This document shows, piece by piece, positions 4,006 to 52,234 of a stretch of 64,000 nucleotides of DNA (the stretch's first letter is position 1; each line of letters starts with the position of its first letter). Location of the stretch: sequence record NC_014467.1. The stretch is one strand, 5' to 3'. The stretch comes from Escherichia phage RB16. The notes below the pieces were generated by a model, which was given only the letters and a program-made list of their open reading frames with translations, was not told the origin of the DNA and searched no databases. Made by a program: the position numbers and the translations under genes.

Positions 4006-4570
4006 AAACTGGGACGACGAATTTCAAGCCGAGATTCGTCGTCGGTTTTACCATGTAAACGGGGTTTTGTATCACAAGACGGAGAGTAAACAAACTGCTT
4101 TTTCTCCGGCGGGATACTATTTCAAACCTGGTGATATGGTGAAATGTCACAAAACTAGGAAAAAGACTCCATATTTACAGATTTGTATGCGATATGAAGG
4201 GAAGTCTAACTATCTATACGTACATAGGGTTGTGTGGTTTCTTGAATATGGGTATCAGGTTGATACGATCGACCATATCGATCTAAATCCTTTAAATAAT
4301 GATCCATCGAATCTTAGAGAAGCAAGCACACAGCAGAACCATTACAACAAAAATGGAAAACCTAACACTTCCTCCACTTACAAGGGTGTATCATGGGATA
4401 AATCAACTTGCAAATGGAAAGTGGGTATTCAGCATAATAAGAAAAAGATTCATTTAGGATATTTTGATGATGAAGTCGAAGCGGCTAAGGCATACGATGC
4501 AAAGGCAATTGAAATTGGTGGACAATATGCGAGGTTAAACTTCCATGATTATGTTAGAACGAGAATTTGA
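3995..4570 (+). CDS. HNH-AP2 homing endonuclease (paralog 2)
   Basis: HNH motif (IDHIDLNPLNNDPSNL) plus AP2-like domain (YKGVSWDKSTCKWKV...LGYF). Confidence 0.8.
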   Translation: MITKNWDDEFQAEIRRRFYHVNGVLYHKTESKQTAFSPAGYYFKPGDMVKCHKTRKKTPYLQICMRYEGKSNYLYVHRVVWFLEYGYQVDTIDHIDLNPLNNDPSNLREASTQQNHYNKNGKPNTSSTYKGVSWDKSTCKWKVGIQHNKKKIHLGYFDDEVEAAKAYDAKAIEIGGQYARLNFHDYVRTRI

Positions 4571-8524: not shown

Positions 8525-10777
8525 ATGAGTGATATTAAAACAGTAGTAAAATCTTCTGGCGTAAGTCAGACATTTGAAAAAGAAAAACTGTTCAAAGTCC
8601 TTAATTGGGCGAGTGCTGGAAAGAATATTGATGTTAACGCATTCCTTGAAAATGTTGTTGACCTGCTTCGTGATGGTATGACTACCAAACAGATCCAGGC
8701 TGTAGCAATCAAGTATGCAGCGGATCGAATCTCCGTTAAAGAACCTGACTGGCAGTATGTAGCGGCTAACCTCGAAATGTTCGCCCTTCGTAAAACCGTT
8801 TACGGGCAGTTTGACCCGATCCCGTTCTACGAACACATCACTAAGCTGGTTGAGGCAGGAAAATACGATAAAGAAATCCTGACCAAATGGACTAAATCCG
8901 ATATCGAATATTTCGAAGAGAATATTAATCACGATAAAGATTTTGAATTCTCTTATGCTGGCGTTCAACAGTTGATCGGGAAATATCTGTTGCAGGATCG
9001 CACCAACGGCGATATCTACGAAACACCACAGTATGCATTCATGCTGATTGCGATGTGTTTACACCAGGATGAACCGCGCACCCTGTCGGCGTTTAATCAT
9101 GTGGTTGACTTCTATAACGCAATTTCGGATCGTAAACTGTCATTACCTACGCCTATTATGGCGGGTGTGCGTACTCCTACGCGTCAGTTCTCCAGTTGTG
9201 TTGTAATCGAATCTGGTGATTCTCTGGGTTCTCTGAACGCTGTTACGTCCGCGATCGTGAAATATATCTCTCAACGTGCGGGTATCGGTGTCAACGCCGG
9301 ACACATTCGCGCTATGGGTTCAAAAATCCGTGGTGGTGAAGCAGTCCATACAGGCGTTATCCCGTTCTGGAAACACATTCAGACGGCGGTTAAATCTTGT
9401 TCCCAGGGTGGCGTTCGTGGTGGTGCAGCAACCCTGTATTATCCGATCTGGCATCTTGAAGTTGAAAACCTGCTGGTTCTGAAAAATAACCGTGGCGTTG
9501 AAGAAAACCGTATTCGTCACCTGGACTATGGCGTACAGCTTAACGATTTGATGTATAAGCGTTTAATCAATAACGATTACATCACTCTGTTCAGCCCTGA
9601 CGTTGCGAATGATCGCCTCTATGACGCGTTCTATCAAGCGGATCAGACTGAGTTTGAAGAACTCTATACCAGTCTGGAAAAAGACCCAGCGGTACGCAAG
9701 AAACGTATTAAAGCGGTAGATCTGTTCCAGTTGCTTGTTCAGGAACGCGCACAGACCGGACGCAAATACATTTTCAACAGTCACCATGTAAACCAGCAGG
9801 GTAGTTTCTCTGTTCCGATTCGTATGTCGAACCTGTGCTGTGAAATCGCGATCCCAACTTCACCGCTGGATGATGATGATAAACTGGCTGGCGAAATTGG
9901 ACTGTGTACGCTTATGGCGATCGTTCTCGATAATGCCGATATAAGCGAATTCCCAGCCCTTACACGCATCGCAGTACGCGCACTGGATAACTTGCTGGAT
10001 TACCAGAACTACCCTGTTGCGGCGGCTCTGAAAGCCAAACAGCGTCGTTCTCTGGGTGTGGGTATCACCAACTATGCATCATGGCTGGCAAGCAACTATT
10101 GCGACTACTCCGAAGCATACGCCGGAAACGTTCATGAGTTGATGGAAGCGTTTCAATTTAACCTGCTGGTTGCCTCTATGGAACTCGCACAGGAACGCGG
10201 TGCATGTGGACTGTTCCACGAAACGAAATATGCACAAGGGCTGTTGCCTATTGACTGGTACTGCAAAAACGTTGATGAACTGGCATCACCTGTGTATAAC
10301 TGCGACTGGGAATGGTTACGCGGTGAAATCAAAAAACATGGCTTGCGTAACTCAACACTTTCTGCTTTAATGCCTTGTGAAAGTAGCTCACAGGTGAGTA
10401 ACTCAACCAACGGGATCGAACCTCCACGCGGCCCTGTGAGTGTGAAATCTTCTAAGGAAGGTTCATTCAATCAGGTAGTACCGAACCAGAATAATCAGAT
10501 TGACTTCTATGATTATCTCTGGACAATGGCAAAACGCGGAAATAAAGGTTATCTGGCTCACGTAGCGGTTATGCAGAAGTTTGTTGATCAGGCTATCTCT
10601 GCAAACACCAACTATGATCCGGCTAACTTCCCAGATGGTAAAGTGAAATCTGAAATCATCCTTGAAGATCTGCTGTATGCAAACTATTTCGGCATCAAAA
10701 CGCTGTACTACCACAACACCCGCGACGGTGCAGGTGAGGAAGAAGCGGAAGATTCATGTGAGGGATGCAAAATTTAA
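8525..10777 (+). CDS. nrdA: aerobic ribonucleotide reductase large subunit
   Basis: 750 aa; N-terminal ATP-cone-like region, class Ia catalytic motifs (SNLCCEI, PCESSSQ); T4 synteny td-nrdA-nrdB. Confidence 0.9.
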   Translation: MSDIKTVVKSSGVSQTFEKEKLFKVLNWASAGKNIDVNAFLENVVDLLRDGMTTKQIQAVAIKYAADRISVKEPDWQYVAANLEMFALRKTVYGQFDPIPFYEHITKLVEAGKYDKEILTKWTKSDIEYFEENINHDKDFEFSYAGVQQLIGKYLLQDRTNGDIYETPQYAFMLIAMCLHQDEPRTLSAFNHVVDFYNAISDRKLSLPTPIMAGVRTPTRQFSSCVVIESGDSLGSLNAVTSAIVKYISQRAGIGVNAGHIRAMGSKIRGGEAVHTGVIPFWKHIQTAVKSCSQGGVRGGAATLYYPIWHLEVENLLVLKNNRGVEENRIRHLDYGVQLNDLMYKRLINNDYITLFSPDVANDRLYDAFYQADQTEFEELYTSLEKDPAVRKKRIKAVDLFQLLVQERAQTGRKYIFNSHHVNQQGSFSVPIRMSNLCCEIAIPTSPLDDDDKLAGEIGLCTLMAIVLDNADISEFPALTRIAVRALDNLLDYQNYPVAAALKAKQRRSLGVGITNYASWLASNYCDYSEAYAGNVHELMEAFQFNLLVASMELAQERGACGLFHETKYAQGLLPIDWYCKNVDELASPVYNCDWEWLRGEIKKHGLRNSTLSALMPCESSSQVSNSTNGIEPPRGPVSVKSSKEGSFNQVVPNQNNQIDFYDYLWTMAKRGNKGYLAHVAVMQKFVDQAISANTNYDPANFPDGKVKSEIILEDLLYANYFGIKTLYYHNTRDGAGEEEAEDSCEGCKI

Positions 10778-10781
10778 CGGA

Positions 10782-10803
10782 GAAGCCCCGAAAGGGGCTT
10801 TTT
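10782..10803 (+). terminator. hairpin AGCCCC-GAAA-GGGGCT + T-run
   Basis: Read directly after nrdA stop. Confidence 0.5.
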
Positions 10804-10806
10804 GAT

Positions 10807-11295
10807 ATGATAACACAATCGCGATTGAAAGAATTATTGACGTATGACAAAGAAACTGGTATTTTTCACTGGAAAGTAAAACTGAATAACAACCATGACA
10901 TAACAAAACCTGCTGGCGTTGTGTATGATGGATATGTTAGGATACAGGTAGACGGTAAAAAATATCGAGCGCACCGATTAGCGTGGTTGTATGTATATGG
11001 CTATATGCCAGAACTTATCGACCACAAAAACGGAATAACTACCGATAATTGGATAGATAATTTGCGGATTGCTTCATGCACTCAAAATCAATACAACAGC
11101 AAGATTCGAAAAGATAACACGTCTGGAATCAAAGGCGTTTCTTTTCATAAAAGAACTGGAAAATGGCAAGCAAAATGCCGTGTTGATGGAATAGTTCATT
11201 ATTTGGGATTATTCCACACAACAACCGAAGCCGAATCCGCTGTAATTGCGTTTCGACATAAACACCATCAAGAATATAGTAACGACGGGAAATAA
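10807..11295 (+). CDS. HNH-AP2 homing endonuclease (paralog 3) at the nrdA/nrdB junction (position of mobE in T4)
   Basis: HNH motif (IDHKNGITTDNWIDNL) + AP2-like domain (IKGVSFHKRTGKWQA); start taken after the hairpin. Confidence 0.75.
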   Translation: MITQSRLKELLTYDKETGIFHWKVKLNNNHDITKPAGVVYDGYVRIQVDGKKYRAHRLAWLYVYGYMPELIDHKNGITTDNWIDNLRIASCTQNQYNSKIRKDNTSGIKGVSFHKRTGKWQAKCRVDGIVHYLGLFHTTTEAESAVIAFRHKHHQEYSNDGK

Positions 11296-11296
11296 T

Positions 11297-12472
11297 ATGC
11301 TTACAGTAATGAATACAAACCCAGATCACAAACACTTAGAACAGCCTATGTTCTTTGGCGAAGATACTGGGGTTGCGCGATACGAAGAACAAAAGCATCG
11401 TGTGTTTGAAAATCTTACGGAAAAACAGTTATCCTTCTTTTGGCGTCCAGAAGAAATTGACTTATCGATCGACCGTATGCAGTACGCGAAAATGCCGGAA
11501 CACGAAAAAATCATTTTCGATTCGAACCTGCAATATCAAACCCTGTTGGATACCATTCAGGGGCGCGGCCCTAACCTGGCTTTCCTCCCTATCGCTTCCG
11601 ATGTCTCGATGGAAACGTGGATCGAAACATGGGCGTTCAGTGAAACAATCCATAGCCGCAGTTATACGCACATTCAGCGCAACCTACACATCGACCCGTC
11701 AAAAGAGTTCGATAAAATTCTGCGCAACGAAGCGATCATGAAACGTTCGGCTTCCATGACAAAATACTACGATGACCTGATCGCAGAATGTCACGAACTG
11801 AAAAACATTGTGCTCAAAATCGAAATGTTAACGTCCCACGGATACCCAGACGAATCGATCGCAGAGTACGAAAAGAAACGCAAAGAGCAAATGCGTAAAT
11901 GTAAGATTGCTCTGTACCTGTGTATGCACGCTGTCAACGCTCTGGAAGCGATCCGCTTCTACGTGTCGTTTACCTTCACGTTCAACTTTGCCGAACAAGG
12001 TAAGATGGAAGGTAACGCGAAGATCATGCGTCTGATTGCCCGTGATGAAGCACTTCATCAGAAAGGTACTCAAAGCAAGATCCGACTCTGGCAAATGGGT
12101 AAAGACGACCCAGAAATGGCAGAAATCGCATTCCAGTATGAAGAGGAAGCGACACAGATTTTCCTTGAAGTATACGAACAGGAAAAAGAATGGGCTGAAC
12201 ACCTGTTCTCTATCGGTGACGTAGACGGCGTATCCCTGAAAAGTACGATCGCCTATATCGAACACCTGACGGATCAGCGTATGCGAGCGGTTGGCCTACA
12301 GTCTCCATTTAAACCTTCACCGAACCCGTATCCGTGGATGAATAAATGGTTGAAGTCAGACAACGTACAGGTAGCCCCGCAAGAGGTAGAAGTAAGTTCT
12401 TACCTGGTTGGCAACCTTAACACTGAGATCAGCGACGAAGCCTATGCAAAATGGCGACAAAAATACGCGTAA
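11297..12472 (+). CDS. nrdB: aerobic ribonucleotide reductase small subunit (uninterrupted)
   Basis: ~391 aa from MLTVMNTNPD; diiron-tyrosyl radical protein motifs; continuous ORF. Confidence 0.9.
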   Translation: MLTVMNTNPDHKHLEQPMFFGEDTGVARYEEQKHRVFENLTEKQLSFFWRPEEIDLSIDRMQYAKMPEHEKIIFDSNLQYQTLLDTIQGRGPNLAFLPIASDVSMETWIETWAFSETIHSRSYTHIQRNLHIDPSKEFDKILRNEAIMKRSASMTKYYDDLIAECHELKNIVLKIEMLTSHGYPDESIAEYEKKRKEQMRKCKIALYLCMHAVNALEAIRFYVSFTFTFNFAEQGKMEGNAKIMRLIARDEALHQKGTQSKIRLWQMGKDDPEMAEIAFQYEEEATQIFLEVYEQEKEWAEHLFSIGDVDGVSLKSTIAYIEHLTDQRMRAVGLQSPFKPSPNPYPWMNKWLKSDNVQVAPQEVEVSSYLVGNLNTEISDEAYAKWRQKYA

Positions 12473-12481
12473 GGACATAAC

Positions 12482-13039
12482 ATGATTGATGCGATTCCCG
12501 TTTATACGGGAGTCCATCACAATCTATACGCATACCTGGCGGGTTGTGTTGATTGTGATGGATGGATTAGTGAAAAAGGAAAGAATGGTTATCTGGTTGG
12601 GCTTACACAGCATATTCAACTATGGGATGATATGGTTAGCATTCAATCTGATTTGATTAACGATGGTGTTGATGCAAAATTATATGAAAGAACCAGTAGA
12701 ACAGGATTAGGTAATACGTTGATGTGCAACCTAATTATTCAAAAATCATCGGATCTCTTGATTCTGTTACCGAGAATCATTCCATACCTTCGATTTAAAA
12801 AGCAAAAAGCAGTTGACGCATATTTTAATTTGTGTAAACATTCAGATCTTAATGCAAGTTCATCCGATAATGATATGAAAGGAAGTAAACGAAAGTATTG
12901 GAAGCCGGAAGAAATATCCGAACTAATTCGTTTACATTCGGAGGGTTACAACAACCCAGCGATAGGGATTAAAATGAATCGTTCTACCGATTCAATAAGT
13001 CATAAGTTGCATCGGTTGGGTATCATGAGAAACGAATGA
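12482..13039 (+). CDS. putative LAGLIDADG-type homing endonuclease with C-terminal HTH-like region
   Basis: Single LAGLIDADG-like motif YLAGCVDCDGWIS near N-terminus; inserted between nrdB and denA. Confidence 0.45.
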   Translation: MIDAIPVYTGVHHNLYAYLAGCVDCDGWISEKGKNGYLVGLTQHIQLWDDMVSIQSDLINDGVDAKLYERTSRTGLGNTLMCNLIIQKSSDLLILLPRIIPYLRFKKQKAVDAYFNLCKHSDLNASSSDNDMKGSKRKYWKPEEISELIRLHSEGYNNPAIGIKMNRSTDSISHKLHRLGIMRNE

Positions 13040-13446
13040 TGGAATCGAAAGTTTATAGAATGTCTCTTGACAAATGCGGTCGAATAGACCGCAGTTTTAT
13101 CAAGTGTGGTGAGTTAAGAAATTGCGTTTACTGTATTGAAATCGACGGCGTGATCGTGTATGTTGGTAAAGCAAAAGACATGTGGAAGCGATTAGATACG
13201 TACAGGAATTCAAAATACTGGAGGGAAGCAAACCCCAGCAACATTTTGAAAACCGCACGTCTGGAAATGGCAATCAAAAAACGTAAGCGTGTGAATCTCA
13301 TTGTGACAACACACGACGAAAACACATATCATAATTTTGAAATAAACATGATCCGAAAAATTAATCCTGAATGGAATAAACAGCACTATGACAAAGCTAA
13401 CCAAAAACCAGAAAACACTCTTCAACCAATTAATGAAGTTGTGTAA
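13036..13446 (+). CDS. denA: endonuclease II (GIY-YIG family)
   Basis: 136 aa = T4 DenA length; GIY-YIG-like VYCIEIDGVIVYVGKA...R; T4 synteny nrdB-denA-rnlA. Confidence 0.75.
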   Translation: MMESKVYRMSLDKCGRIDRSFIKCGELRNCVYCIEIDGVIVYVGKAKDMWKRLDTYRNSKYWREANPSNILKTARLEMAIKKRKRVNLIVTTHDENTYHNFEINMIRKINPEWNKQHYDKANQKPENTLQPINEVV

Positions 13447-14545
13447 CGAAACCGAATGCTTTTACTTTATTGACCAAAAAACCGTAATGCAAACCCACGT
13501 TCGCATTTTCAACTATCGTATGGCAAGTTACAGCGATTGGTTGAAACCTGGTGCGCTGGAGTGTCGCGGTATTATGTTTGCGATGGATGGAGACACCCCC
13601 GTAAAACTCGTCAGCCGTCCTATGGAGAAGTTTTTCAACTATGCTGAGGTAAAGGCATGGGAAGCACTTAAAGAGGCTCCTGTGACGATTGGCGACACCG
13701 TAGTTGATGTGATGATCAAAGAAGATGGTTCCTTAATCTCAACCTTCTGCGATTCCGGCTATCTGGGCGTTAAATCTAAAGCGTCAGTTCAGTCTGAACA
13801 GGCTATGGATGCTATGAGCGTGATCCAATCTAACCGCGCATTGTTCGATCGCCTGACCGAACTGGTGGTTGATGGGTTCACCGTTAACATGGAATACGTC
13901 GCACCGACTAACCGCATTGTAATTGGTTATCAAGACCCCGCTGTTGTGATCCTGAACATCCGTAATAACGACACGGGCGAATACGTCGATTATCAGGACA
14001 TCTTCGCAGATAGTGTATTACGTCCGTTCCTTGTTGAGCGTGAGAAAATCGAAGTCACCGATCTGGATGCATTCATTACCGAAGCCTACACGAAAGAAGG
14101 TTTTGAGGGTTACGTAATCAAAACTGATAAAGGGTTCGTGAAAGCGAAAACTAACTGGTACGTAAACCTACACCGCACGAAAGATAGCATCAACAATAAT
14201 AAGGATCTGTTCTTAAATATTGTTGAAAATACCGTCGATGACCTGAAACAAATGTTCCTCGATGATATGTACGCACTCAAGAAAATTGACGCATTCGAAA
14301 CGTTATTCCTTGATAGTCTGAATCGTCTGACTGCAAAAGCATTCCAGTCAATCGAAGACACGAAAGGCAAATCACGCAAAGATTACGCGATCGCCCTGAG
14401 TTCTGACTTAACCCCTGACGGTCGTATCATCTTCGGGCCTATGATGCGTTATTTTGATGATACCGATAAGCAAAAGCTGGTCGATAACATCGTTGCATTA
14501 ATGGCGAAGAACTACGAACAGTTTATACCGGAAGAATATAAATGA
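13388..14545 (+). CDS. rnlA: RNA ligase 1
   Basis: N-terminal region aligns by eye with T4 gp63 (LFNQLMKLC...ASYSDWLKPGALECRGIMFAMDG). Confidence 0.85.
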   Translation: MTKLTKNQKTLFNQLMKLCNETECFYFIDQKTVMQTHVRIFNYRMASYSDWLKPGALECRGIMFAMDGDTPVKLVSRPMEKFFNYAEVKAWEALKEAPVTIGDTVVDVMIKEDGSLISTFCDSGYLGVKSKASVQSEQAMDAMSVIQSNRALFDRLTELVVDGFTVNMEYVAPTNRIVIGYQDPAVVILNIRNNDTGEYVDYQDIFADSVLRPFLVEREKIEVTDLDAFITEAYTKEGFEGYVIKTDKGFVKAKTNWYVNLHRTKDSINNNKDLFLNIVENTVDDLKQMFLDDMYALKKIDAFETLFLDSLNRLTAKAFQSIEDTKGKSRKDYAIALSSDLTPDGRIIFGPMMRYFDDTDKQKLVDNIVALMAKNYEQFIPEEYK

Positions 14546-14868
14546 CATTACCCGCCTTTCCAAAGTTAACTTCTTTGGTGTGGCCTGTACTTGTTGCCCT
14601 GTCTCTGGCAGGGCTTTTGTACATGACAATCACGCTGAAAAGTGAAAACGATCAATTGGCTAAAGATATCAAAGAGTTACGCGATGATGTCAAAAAAGTC
14701 AAAGAGACAAACAACACCAATACGGTGATCTACGTCGAACAAAAAGCGAAGGATCAGCAGTTGGTCAAGGATGCCGGACGTAAAGACCTGCTGTTCAAGA
14801 AACCAGGACTGATCGAAATCAAGATCAATAAATCCTTCGAAGAGTATATGAGAGATTTCGAAAAATGA
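14542..14868 (+). CDS. small membrane-anchored protein (108 aa)
   Basis: N-terminal hydrophobic helix then charged coiled-coil-like region. Confidence 0.5.
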   Translation: MTLPAFPKLTSLVWPVLVALSLAGLLYMTITLKSENDQLAKDIKELRDDVKKVKETNNTNTVIYVEQKAKDQQLVKDAGRKDLLFKKPGLIEIKINKSFEEYMRDFEK

Positions 14869-15191
14869 AAATAACGACATTAGCCCTTGTTCTGGGCGTT
14901 CTGTTGGTCGGGTGTGCTGAGAAGCCCCCTGAAAAGATTTTGCCGACTTTACCCGCTAAGGTAAACCCTGTTGATGTGAAATGGAAAGTAATAGCGGAAG
15001 TAAGGGAAATCGACGGGAAGAAATATCTCGTTATGCCGTTTGACGGCAACCCATACGTTGCGCTATCATATCCAGACTCATTGATTTTTCGTAGCTGGAT
15101 GAATGACGTTAAGCGACAGAAAGATCAAACCGATAATATCCTATGTGCCGTGGGATATTCTGAAAAATGTAAATTGAGAGATTCTAAATGA
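14865..15191 (+). CDS. putative lipoprotein (108 aa)
   Basis: Signal peptide with lipobox-like LLVGC. Confidence 0.5.
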   Translation: MKITTLALVLGVLLVGCAEKPPEKILPTLPAKVNPVDVKWKVIAEVREIDGKKYLVMPFDGNPYVALSYPDSLIFRSWMNDVKRQKDQTDNILCAVGYSEKCKLRDSK

Positions 15192-21821: not shown

Positions 21822-22341
21822 TGAAGAAACGCAAGGTATAGAAAACCTACTACAATGTATTCGAGTAGAACCAGAAACCGGAAAATGTTTCTGGTTGGAA
21901 AAGAGAAGTAATAAAATTCCTGCTGGAAGTGAAGCAGGTTCTTTTCATAAATCAAGTGGATATACGCGAATAAAATTCGAAAATGCGATGTACATCCGGT
22001 CAAGGGTGATATTTTATTACGTTAATGGTTATCTTCCAGTGATGGTTGACCATGTTCACGGTGTTGAATGCGGTGATATGATTTCTAATCTAAGGGAGTC
22101 CAATCAGGTAACAAATCAACAAAACCGCACACGGAATAAAAATAATACCGTTGGGTTTAAGGGCGTGTCATTCAACAAGAAATCGCAAAAATATAGCGCC
22201 AAAATCACTTTACATGGAGTGACTAAGTGGTTAGGATTTTATGATTCTGCCGAGGAAGCAAGTGAAGCATATAAGGCCAAAGCACTCGTTTCCTTTACAC
22301 ATAATGAAAGGTACTTAAATGATCTTACAGATTCTGAATGA
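21790..22341 (+). CDS. HNH-AP2 homing endonuclease (paralog 4)
   Basis: HNH motif (VDHVHGVECGDMISNL...NQQN) + AP2-like domain (FKGVSFNKKSQKYSAKI). Confidence 0.8.
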   Translation: MKLKKQLRTLDEETQGIENLLQCIRVEPETGKCFWLEKRSNKIPAGSEAGSFHKSSGYTRIKFENAMYIRSRVIFYYVNGYLPVMVDHVHGVECGDMISNLRESNQVTNQQNRTRNKNNTVGFKGVSFNKKSQKYSAKITLHGVTKWLGFYDSAEEASEAYKAKALVSFTHNERYLNDLTDSE

Positions 22342-43442: not shown

Positions 43443-43947
43443 ATAATTCTTTCGCTTTCGCTTCGTATACTACACTAGCTTCTTCTGGCGTGGCAAACCT
43501 ACCCAAAAACATATCTTTGCGGTTATGTTTGATTTTAGCTATCCATTTATCACGAGCATTGTCGAAATAGACCCCCTTATAGCCAGATTTATTGGTTTTC
43601 GGAGTTTTTGCTTTCATCGTGTTCTGCTGTTGCGTTACTTCCTGTAGGTTATCTTTGCCATTACCGTTCCCGACCCCGCGTTTATGGTCAACGATAGCGG
43701 GAAGATACCCGTTAGCAACATAGAAAACAATTCGATGAACATAGTACGACTTGCCGTTATATCCTATTGCAGTGTATCCAAATGAATTCGTACTACCCGC
43801 AATACTTCCTACTGTAGCCCTACTACCCCTGTGAACTTTCCAATAACACAACCCTGTGTCAACATCAACCCGAAGAATTTCTAACAATGAATCTATTTCG
43901 CTGCGTTCATCTTCTAGCGTTCTTTTCCACCGTCCGTGGCATTTCAT
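43414..43947 (-). CDS. HNH-AP2 homing endonuclease (paralog 5)
   Basis: HNH motif (VDHKRGVGNGNGKDNL...QQQN) + AP2-like (YKGVYFDNARDKWIAKI). Confidence 0.8.
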   Translation of the reverse strand: MKCHGRWKRTLEDERSEIDSLLEILRVDVDTGLCYWKVHRGSRATVGSIAGSTNSFGYTAIGYNGKSYYVHRIVFYVANGYLPAIVDHKRGVGNGNGKDNLQEVTQQQNTMKAKTPKTNKSGYKGVYFDNARDKWIAKIKHNRKDMFLGRFATPEEASVVYEAKAKELFGEFYENRS

Positions 43948-51677: not shown

Positions 51678-52234
51678 GGGCTTTCCTTATTATAAAAAGT
51701 TCCAAAATTTAACAACGCTGATTTTTTATAAGCGTTGCTTGCTTCTTCAGGATCATCAAAAGATCCCAAGTAGGTTGCTTTACCATTAATGGTTATTTGA
51801 GCAATCCACTTTTCATTTATAGTATTCCAAGTAACACCGATAAAACCAGAAGTATTAGTTTTCATCATACTTTTCTTTTGCTGATTTTGAGTATTAGTCA
51901 CTTCTTGCAAGTTGTCAATACCATCACCAAAAGAAACACCTTTCTTATGATCAATCATAACAGGAAGAGTACCTGTAGATACATAATACACGATGCGGTG
52001 TCTTCTAAACTGCTTTCCTTTGAAGTTTATAACGGTATATCCATCTTTCCGCAAGGTTCCTGCAAAAGAACCAACTTTAATTTTTCGGTTAGTTGATTTT
52101 ATCCATACACACGTACCGGAAACAACGTCAACGCTGATATATTCAAGTAATTCATCAATCAGTTGTTTTTCTTCTGATAGTGTACGCTCTCCCCATCCAT
52201 AAGATTTAGTCATGTTTAATACCTTTTGTAACAA
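51674..52234 (-). CDS. HNH-AP2 homing endonuclease (paralog 6)
   Basis: HNH motif (IDHKKGVSFGDGIDNL...NTQNQ) + AP2-like (FIGVTWNTINEKWIAQI). Confidence 0.8.
   Translation of the reverse strand: MLQKVLNMTKSYGWGERTLSEEKQLIDELLEYISVDVVSGTCVWIKSTNRKIKVGSFAGTLRKDGYTVINFKGKQFRRHRIVYYVSTGTLPVMIDHKKGVSFGDGIDNLQEVTNTQNQQKKSMMKTNTSGFIGVTWNTINEKWIAQITINGKATYLGSFDDPEEASNAYKKSALLNFGTFYNKESP

Follow-up and report, generated by a model that had tools for sequence, protein, structure and literature searches.

A predicted free-standing LAGLIDADG homing endonuclease gene with a tethered helix-turn-helix domain at the nrdB-denA junction of Escherichia phage RB16

Described homing endonucleases and the gene between nrdB and denA

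LAGLIDADG enzymes with a single motif are homodimers, and each of their subunits provides one metal-binding acidic residue at the helix-helix interface. Among them are I-CreI, I-MsoI and I-CvuI from the rRNA group I introns of algal chloroplasts, which cut pseudo-palindromic targets of about 22 bp across the minor groove. Cuts by enzymes of this class are double-stranded and site-specific, fall in long targets of about 20 bp or more, and leave 3' overhangs of 4 nt. Here we report the analysis of an open reading frame (ORF) of Escherichia phage RB16 in comparison with these enzymes. The ORF lies at 12482-13039 on the plus strand of the window, i.e. the whole stretch of 64,000 nucleotides analysed from record NC_014467.1, runs from ATG to TGA and encodes 185 amino acids. 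Its product is almost certainly a LAGLIDADG-fold protein of the I-CreI type, and with a probability of about 0.68 we take the gene to encode an active free-standing homing endonuclease, the activity being predicted. Equivalents of the I-CreI residues D20, Q47 and K98 are conserved in the family of the ORF. The differences are that the gene stands free in a phage and is not intron-encoded, that its product ends in a Myb/GcrA-like helix-turn-helix (HTH) instead of the C-terminal helices and loop of I-CreI, that the beta1-beta2 hairpin is shorter in the subgroup of phages RB43 and KP27, and that Cys takes the place of both F16 and G19 of I-CreI in the sub-clade of the ORF.

The free-standing endonucleases of phage T4, MobE and SegA-G (HNH, GIY-YIG), offer a second comparison. 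Like them, the gene is a promoter-less cassette between conserved genes of nucleotide metabolism, its product joins a nuclease to a separate DNA-binding domain, and its distribution among relatives is patchy with co-converted flanks (Edgell et al. 2010, PMC2988022). The neighbourhood of nrdB is itself a known hot spot, holding mobE, I-TevIII and hef (PMC2988022). On the other hand, the T4 review lists GIY-YIG and HNH enzymes only, neither LAGLIDADG enzymes nor RB43 (PMC2988022), and at our locus the incoming LAGLIDADG gene replaces a resident DUF4326 gene instead of filling an empty spacer. In phages the nuclease and the DNA-binding domain are, by general design, placed at opposite ends, and at least 8 of 20 LAGLIDADG genes in one phage set are intein-borne in nrdA (Barth et al. 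2023, PMC10448857). A third comparison is WhiA/DUF199, bacterial regulators with two LAGLIDADG domains per chain and the catalytic residues lost (PMC3384342), whereas the ORF protein has one domain with the catalytic positions conserved; therefore it is not a WhiA. In addition, WhiA is a conserved chromosomal gene, and the gene studied here is sporadic in phages.

The protein is 100% identical in amino acids to RB43ORF066w, which is labelled a hypothetical protein in GenBank but was listed as 'LAGLIDADG endonuclease' (Pfam E-value 0.15) among putative mobile DNA elements (Nolan et al. 2006, PMC1524935). The recognition of LAGLIDADG is thus not new, having been weakly flagged in 2006. The KP27 homologue, KP27_075, is 89.7% identical in protein, occupies the same genomic position and is also annotated as a hypothetical protein. 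The KP27 paper describes two KP27-specific homing endonuclease genes, both HNH, without including KP27_075, and its comparison with KP15 ascribes the differences of KP27 to 'two unique homing endonucleases' (PMC5219037). We observe that KP27_075 (L007, 3074-3631) is a third KP27-specific endonuclease gene, which replaces the DUF4326 gene of KP15, Matisse and Miro. What is added by our analysis is a family assignment that is sound statistically, an active site traced over 57 family members, the HTH-tethered architecture, and an allele series together with a mapped transfer patch.

The LAGLIDADG core and the C-terminal domain

The family assignment comes from profiles and from the predicted fold. 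We built a profile of 14 sequences, i.e. the ORF protein and 13 relatives of 32-89% identity collected in two rounds of homologue search. Against the PDB this profile matches wild-type I-CreI (1bp7, 1n3e) at an E-value of about 3e-6, with profile positions 3-118 aligned to I-CreI 3-108, and nearly all of the 60 PDB matches listed are LAGLIDADG proteins, the few others aligning to the C-terminal HTH only. In Pfam, LAGLIDADG_1 is matched by four of the 14 relatives (best E-value 2.8e-5), and a homing-endonuclease model of PADLOC covers residues 13-110 (E-value 9.4e-6), this being a generic model and no defence system. An AlphaFold (AF2) model on the family alignment, with a mean predicted local distance difference test (pLDDT) score of 85, has the canonical LAGLIDADG topology, with the core at 12518-12850 on the plus strand: a helix at residues 13-26, strands at 27-32 and 36-44, a helix at 45-60, strands at 66-74 and 77-86, and helices at 89-102 and 107-123, then a low-confidence linker and a three-helix bundle at 142-178. 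The top 50 Foldseek matches of the model are all LAGLIDADG proteins, with I-CreI, I-MsoI and I-CvuI as the closest. Since the family profile matches and the fold both point to LAGLIDADG enzymes, the motif is not a chance match. PHROGs places the protein in phrog_16747 (E-value 1.7e-113), of function unknown, NCBIfam gives no match for it, and one homologue in a Pectobacterium phage carries the annotation 'intron-encoded endonuclease I-CreI'.

The motif itself, YLAGCVDCDGWIS, occupies residues 18-30 (12533-12571, plus strand) and reads Y18-LAGCVDCDGWIS-30 from its first residue. Its Asp26 (codon 12557-12559) aligns with I-CreI D20. Gln43 (codon 12608-12610) corresponds to the active-site Q47 of I-CreI through a TQ motif aligned with I-CreI VTQK, and Lys106 (codon 12797-12799) to the active-site K98, as the surrounding PYLRFKKQKA aligns with PFLKLKQKQA of I-CreI and PYLRIKKKQA of I-MsoI. 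With HMMER, 1.84 billion cluster representatives were searched exhaustively, which returned 823 proteins at E-values up to 1e-3; about 55 of these are full-length relatives of about 180 amino acids that share the two-domain layout. D26, Q43, K106, A20 and G27 are invariant in all of the 57 members aligned, each of which stands for one cluster at 50% identity. As a consensus the family has W-YIAGFLDGDGWIT, a textbook LAGLIDADG motif near the YLAGFVDGDGSI of I-CreI. By analogy with I-CreI-type enzymes, D26, Q43 and K106 are the putative active-site residues, and the product should be a homodimer, because each chain has a single I-CreI-type domain. We also considered whether C22-x-x-C25, in the LAGLIDADG helix, might bind a metal or form a disulphide where the subunits of the dimer meet, and rejected this: the pairs at residues 22/25 among the 57 relatives are F/G in 26, C/C in 18, F/C in 9 and F/A in 4, showing a substitution of one sub-clade and no feature of the family.

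The C-terminal part is a three-helix HTH, probably of Myb/GcrA-like type, at residues about 138-180 (12893-13021, plus strand), joined to the core by the low-confidence linker at about 121-140, and it resembles domains of the transcription factors GcrA, Myb and RcsB. The tethered HTH probably adds DNA contacts flanking the core site. As a side observation, up to 11 tandem copies of the same HTH module are found in long metagenome proteins, including P0015 (914 amino acids), P0035, P0047, P0052, P0056 and many more. The original prediction, made from the letters alone, had claimed a 185-residue ORF with a LAGLIDADG-like motif near its N-terminus and an HTH-like C-terminus, and both parts hold: the motif is exact in its coordinates, and the HTH is found in a sub-threshold HTH_38 match of Pfam, in the three-helix bundle and in structure and profile matches. 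It had also set the gene apart from the HNH-AP2 nucleases of the window and proposed a profile search, in which an unrelated family would have told against it. The search led to I-CreI-type enzymes, and neither HNH nor AP2 has a match in the ORF, which thus does not belong to the HNH-AP2 class.

Position, alleles and transfer of the gene

Upstream of the ORF is nrdB, the gene of the ribonucleotide reductase small subunit (11297-12472, plus strand), which is found in the ORF list and matches the annotated nrdB of RB43; we place its start by the 1176-bp length annotated in RB43, and its stop codon TAA is at 12470-12472. Downstream is denA, encoding endonuclease II of GIY-YIG type (13036-13446, plus strand), identified by phrog_1111 (E-value 1.4e-43) and by the RB43 annotation; besides the endonuclease match, its product gives a weak GIY-YIG match in the profile scan. 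The leader of the LAGLIDADG gene (12471-12481, plus strand) has the Shine-Dalgarno sequence AAGGA at 12471-12475, overlapping the nrdB stop, and a 6-nt spacer to the ATG. With this leader on one side and a TGA overlapping the denA start codon (13036/13039) on the other, the ORF fills the nrdB-denA junction exactly. Its G+C content of 33-38% compares with 45-48% in nrdB and rnlA. No late-promoter motif TATAAATA is present near the ORF, no convincing sigma-70 site is found directly upstream of it, and no Rfam family matches within 10000-15000 at E-values up to 1, therefore no group I intron is found there. Both nrdB and denA are separate intact ORFs, and the gene resides in neither a group I intron nor an intein, a setting that is usual for LAGLIDADG enzymes but not required. 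The lack of both a promoter motif upstream and an Rfam intron match shows the gene to be a free-standing cassette without a promoter of its own. Presumably it is read from nrdB transcripts, in a manner known from several T4 seg and mob genes (PMC2988022). A stem of 7 bp with a loop of 5 nt and then a T-run (TGCGGTCGAATAGACCGCA GTTTTAT) is observed at 13075-13093 (plus strand), within the 5' end of denA. It is kept in the LAGLIDADG and HNH alleles of Pseudotevenvirus and not in Slopekvirus, and is reminiscent of the internal terminators in T4 mobE and segF (PMC2988022).

We then present the junction in the relatives. In T4 it is empty, with 3 bp between denA (137517-137951) and nrdB (from 137955), just as the original prediction has it. 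About 173 records of Pseudotevenvirus and Slopekvirus matched the flanks of the junction, and among them four states are found, namely a LAGLIDADG gene, a DUF4326 gene, an HNH-AP2 gene and a deletion remnant. The LAGLIDADG gene is present in 10 records, four being RB43 entries and six from Slopekvirus (including KP27, R2_1, R6_1, CPRSA and CPRSB), and the frame is unbroken in every carrier, save for a shorter match of 167 amino acids in CPRSB. In most genomes the occupant is the DUF4326 gene (103-106 amino acids, Pfam E-value 1.4e-18), as in Matisse (L008, 737-1057), SemperBestia (L004, 2145-2456) and GuL6 (L009, 3578-3889). It begins within nrdB, overlapping the final 29 nt, tblastn finds it in 302 phage records, and its T4-type homologue is annotated NrdA.1. 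Carriers of the LAGLIDADG gene have lost it at the junction, and in the 64-kb window neither a DUF4326 gene elsewhere nor a second LAGLIDADG copy is found. The HNH-AP2 gene (179 amino acids) occupies the junction in 10 records. A few genomes, e.g. that of Klebsiella phage Olmo, seem empty but keep 48 nt from the 3' end of the HNH-AP2 gene (ATGAAAGCACAGGTTGTTCATGGTGAATACTACAACGAAAGTTTATAA); the Olmo junction looks like a decayed HNH-AP2 gene with a deletion between two AAAATGA repeats and not like a naive site (remnant at about 2174-2250 of L002, against the intact gene at 2183-2722 of L003, from Kp_GWPR59).

The borders of the alleles are sharp. The Slopekvirus swap is exact: from the third base of the nrdB stop to the base preceding the denA ATG, KP27 differs from Matisse, and the flanks of the two are identical over 466 bp to the left and 196 bp to the right. 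We also looked for flank differences by which carriers would be protected (self-immunity), and with these flanks there are none. Since carrier and non-carrier flanks are identical, the target of the enzyme, if it homes, lies in the replaced DUF4326 segment or across its border. In Pseudotevenvirus the LAGLIDADG and HNH-AP2 alleles (the latter exemplified by Kp_GWPR59) have the leader TAAGGAYATAAMATGA in common, and homology resumes at CGAAAGTTTATA, from 13048, within the first codons of denA. As side observations, the 5' region of denA in Pseudotevenvirus genomes with DUF4326 alleles has at most 78% identity to the RB43 type, and the denA of GuL6 (L009, 3889-4308) is annotated with 96 amino acids only, after a 128-bp unannotated gap that follows the DUF4326 gene. 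The start of the GuL6 denA may be mis-called, or the gene damaged.

The copy in RB16 further bears the mark of a recent transfer. Over 2.1 kb the region around it is 94.8% identical to coliphage RB43 (Pseudotevenvirus, Straboviridae), and a tract of 892 bp (12425-13316) is 100% identical to it, with 0 mismatches. On both sides of the tract the divergence from RB43 is about 10%, so that about 89 differences would be expected over 892 bp. From 13181 to about 13896 the sequence is 98-100% identical to Buttiauxella phage GuL6, which has the DUF4326 allele, against only about 90% for RB43, and at 12197-12396 the identities are 93-96% for GuL6 and 82-90% for RB43. An RB43-identical tract inside flanks closer to GuL6 shows that a GuL6-like backbone received the segment from an RB43-like donor. 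The minimal donor segment is 12469-13180, with crossover zones at 12425-12468 and 13181-13316, and besides the endonuclease gene it takes in no more than 57 bp of nrdB and 140 bp or more of denA. Double-strand-break repair with co-conversion is expected to leave such a pattern, and homing is the proposed cause of this putative co-conversion or recombination patch.

On a longer scale, the ratio of nonsynonymous to synonymous substitution rates (dN/dS) between the RB16 and KP27 copies is 0.078 (0.057 in the core domain and 0.10 in the C-terminal part), and judging from these values the gene is under purifying selection. The proportion of synonymous differences (pS) between the genera is 0.45 for the ORF, compared with 0.60 for nrdB (its last 300 nt), 0.80 for denA and 0.73 for rnlA; since the ORF is below its flanking genes, it was exchanged between the two genera after their divergence. 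Homologues with 37-41% identity are sporadic in the unrelated Pectobacterium Certrevirus and E. coli Phapecoctavirus. Only 13 of the 71 matching Phapecoctavirus records have the gene, and others have at this spot an unrelated gene of 122 amino acids or a deletion remnant. The alternative gene there is nieznany_160, and the homologue is 37% identical. In DIJ07P2 a deletion of 434 bp with an 11-bp overlap has left about 105 bp from the 3' end of the homologue (L011, about 872-882, against the intact homologue at 3980-4522 of L006), which fits a cycle of invasion, decay and loss in the family. Two metagenomic relatives lie among small phage genes, and on the contig of one of them a primase-helicase is found, together with an HNH gene, no more than a few kb away. 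On this comparative evidence the gene behaves as a mobile one, occurring sporadically at a fixed site and moving together with its flanks.

The original prediction had further counted six HNH-AP2 genes in the window and thought the LAGLIDADG gene an independent invasion. Indeed tblastn finds six HNH-AP2-like loci, at 1853-2272, 4220-4501, 10765-11292 and 21847-22323 on the plus strand and at 43474-43887 and 51731-52153 on the minus strand, with 33-37% mutual identity and none at 12482-13039. The independence agrees both with what relatives hold at the site, i.e. a DUF4326 gene, an HNH-AP2 gene or a remnant, and with the RB43-identical patch within a different backbone. One of the six loci belongs to a gene between nrdA and nrdB (10765-11295, plus strand), whose 176 residues have HNH_3 (E-value 1.2e-12) and AP2 (E-value 8e-4) domains. 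It is at the position of T4 mobE and overlaps the 3' end of nrdA by 13 nt. RB43, GuL6, Olmo, Kp_GWPR59 and SemperBestia have a nrdA-nrdB gap of only about 37 bp, and because these relatives have so little there, the gene is a second polymorphic homing-type gene flanking nrdB.

Homing and the alternative explanations

We propose that single-domain subunits would pair as a homodimer with their two LAGLIDADG helices packed together, each subunit giving one metal-binding Asp (D26) aided by Q43 and K106, and that the Myb/GcrA-like HTH on its flexible linker would supply flanking DNA contacts. The gene would share the nrdB transcript and be translated from a Shine-Dalgarno sequence of its own. When carrier and non-carrier infect together, the enzyme would cut the gene-less allele, which carries the DUF4326/NrdA.1-like gene between nrdB and denA, and double-strand-break repair would copy the endonuclease gene with the adjacent flank from the carrier, thus replacing the resident gene.

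Several points weigh against this proposal. As a single sequence in Pfam, the ORF protein stays below the curated cut-offs both for LAGLIDADG_3 (E-value 1.4e-3, 19.3 bits against 22.5) and for HTH_38 (E-value 9e-5, 22.6 bits against 27). C25 stands at the place of I-CreI G19, substitutions of which perturb the homodimer function of I-CreI; yet about 47% of family members have Cys there, and engineered I-CreI entries with G19S are among the PDB matches listed. The beta1-beta2 hairpin that reads the DNA is shortest in the RB43/KP27 branch, with about 10 residues less than in most relatives, and this could weaken DNA binding, a loss that the contacts of the HTH may offset. A scan for target sites among 20-24-bp pseudo-palindromes in the gene-less alleles of Matisse, SemperBestia and GuL6 gave at best 8-10 of 12 pairs, about the level of chance, and none of these pseudo-palindromes is conserved between the genera. 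A 24-mer CGACAAAAATACGCTTGATTGTCG with 8 of 12 pairs and perfect outer arms of 6 bp spans the left junction of GuL6 and SemperBestia, and carriers lack its right half; its chance of coincidence is estimated at about 0.1, so it is only a candidate target. Ordinary recombination could make the patch too, as T4-like phages recombine often. Finally, the dS of 0.69 between the RB16 and KP27 alleles implies long persistence, for which a purely selfish gene would need recurrent homing.

In a first alternative, in our view an unlikely one, the product is an active site-specific nuclease kept for the benefit of the phage, rather than for homing or besides it, and the gene is spread by ordinary recombination. 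Possible roles are the exclusion of markers of co-infecting relatives, an attack on a competitor or satellite element, or the cutting of host DNA. The strong purifying selection (dN/dS 0.078 at dS 0.69) is stronger than a selfish gene that invaded recently would be expected to show, the gene adjoins denA, which encodes an endonuclease against host DNA, and genes derived from homing endonucleases have been co-opted for phage defence, e.g. ICP1 odn (Barth et al. 2023, PMC10448857). However, a generally useful function is expected to be wider than 10 of about 173 related records, another homing-type gene (HNH-AP2) takes its place at the junction in other records, family members are also found as deletion remnants, and PADLOC yields the generic homing-endonuclease model and no defence system.

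Less probable is a domesticated DNA-binding protein that does not cut, a WhiA-like regulator or autorepressor using the HTH and the LAGLIDADG scaffold for binding only. Its appeal lies in the architecture, since LAGLIDADG with a C-terminal HTH is that of WhiA/DUF199 (PMC3384342), in the shortened DNA-reading hairpin and in an HTH akin to the transcription-factor domains of GcrA, Myb and RcsB. But the acidic and basic catalytic residues that WhiA is without (PMC3384342) are kept here as D26, Q43 and K106 in 57 of 57 members, the ORF protein has one LAGLIDADG domain per chain instead of two, the scores of homing enzymes exceed those of WhiA, and the patchy, cassette-like distribution is ill suited to a regulator. 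Slightly less probable still is an inactive relic of a homing endonuclease gene, passively carried by recombination across nrdB-denA, for C25, the shortened hairpin and the degenerate remnants of related genes (DIJ07P2 in Phapecoctavirus, the HNH-AP2 remnant of Olmo) are countered by the frame kept intact in the 10 carriers, CPRSB with its 167-residue match apart, by a dN/dS of 0.078 with both domains similarly constrained (0.057 and 0.10), and by the retention of every catalytic position.

We tentatively suggest, as a view somewhat short of an even chance, that the family of the ORF protein, with members of roughly 180 amino acids in about 50 full-length clusters at 50% identity, phage-like in every context examined, may form a distinct architectural subclass of LAGLIDADG homing endonucleases. 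In it an I-CreI-like homodimeric core, intact in its catalysis but with the DNA-reading hairpin shortened in the RB43/KP27 branch, would hand part of the recognition to a tethered Myb/GcrA-like HTH. The enzyme would then be the first free-standing LAGLIDADG homing enzyme described in T4-related phages, invading by displacement of a resident DUF4326/NrdA.1-like gene, and the family would match, on a LAGLIDADG basis, the nuclease-linker-HTH design known from I-TevI and I-HmuI. The family might even represent, in living form, the catalytic state that preceded WhiA-type regulators. The product is perhaps a modest architectural variant.

The understanding of how homing endonucleases work is unchanged by these results, and a compact single-motif enzyme with a tethered HTH is of interest for meganuclease engineering only if its activity and target are established. 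For the phages themselves, a gene labelled hypothetical in RB43 and KP27 and of function unknown in PHROGs (phrog_16747) obtains a function with good support, and LAGLIDADG is added to the homing endonucleases of T4-related phages, which in reviews are GIY-YIG and HNH only. The nrdB-denA junction is a three-way polymorphic hot spot, with a DUF4326, an HNH-AP2 or a LAGLIDADG gene, and with one recent transfer mapped to tens of bases it offers a convenient natural system for intron-less homing and co-conversion.

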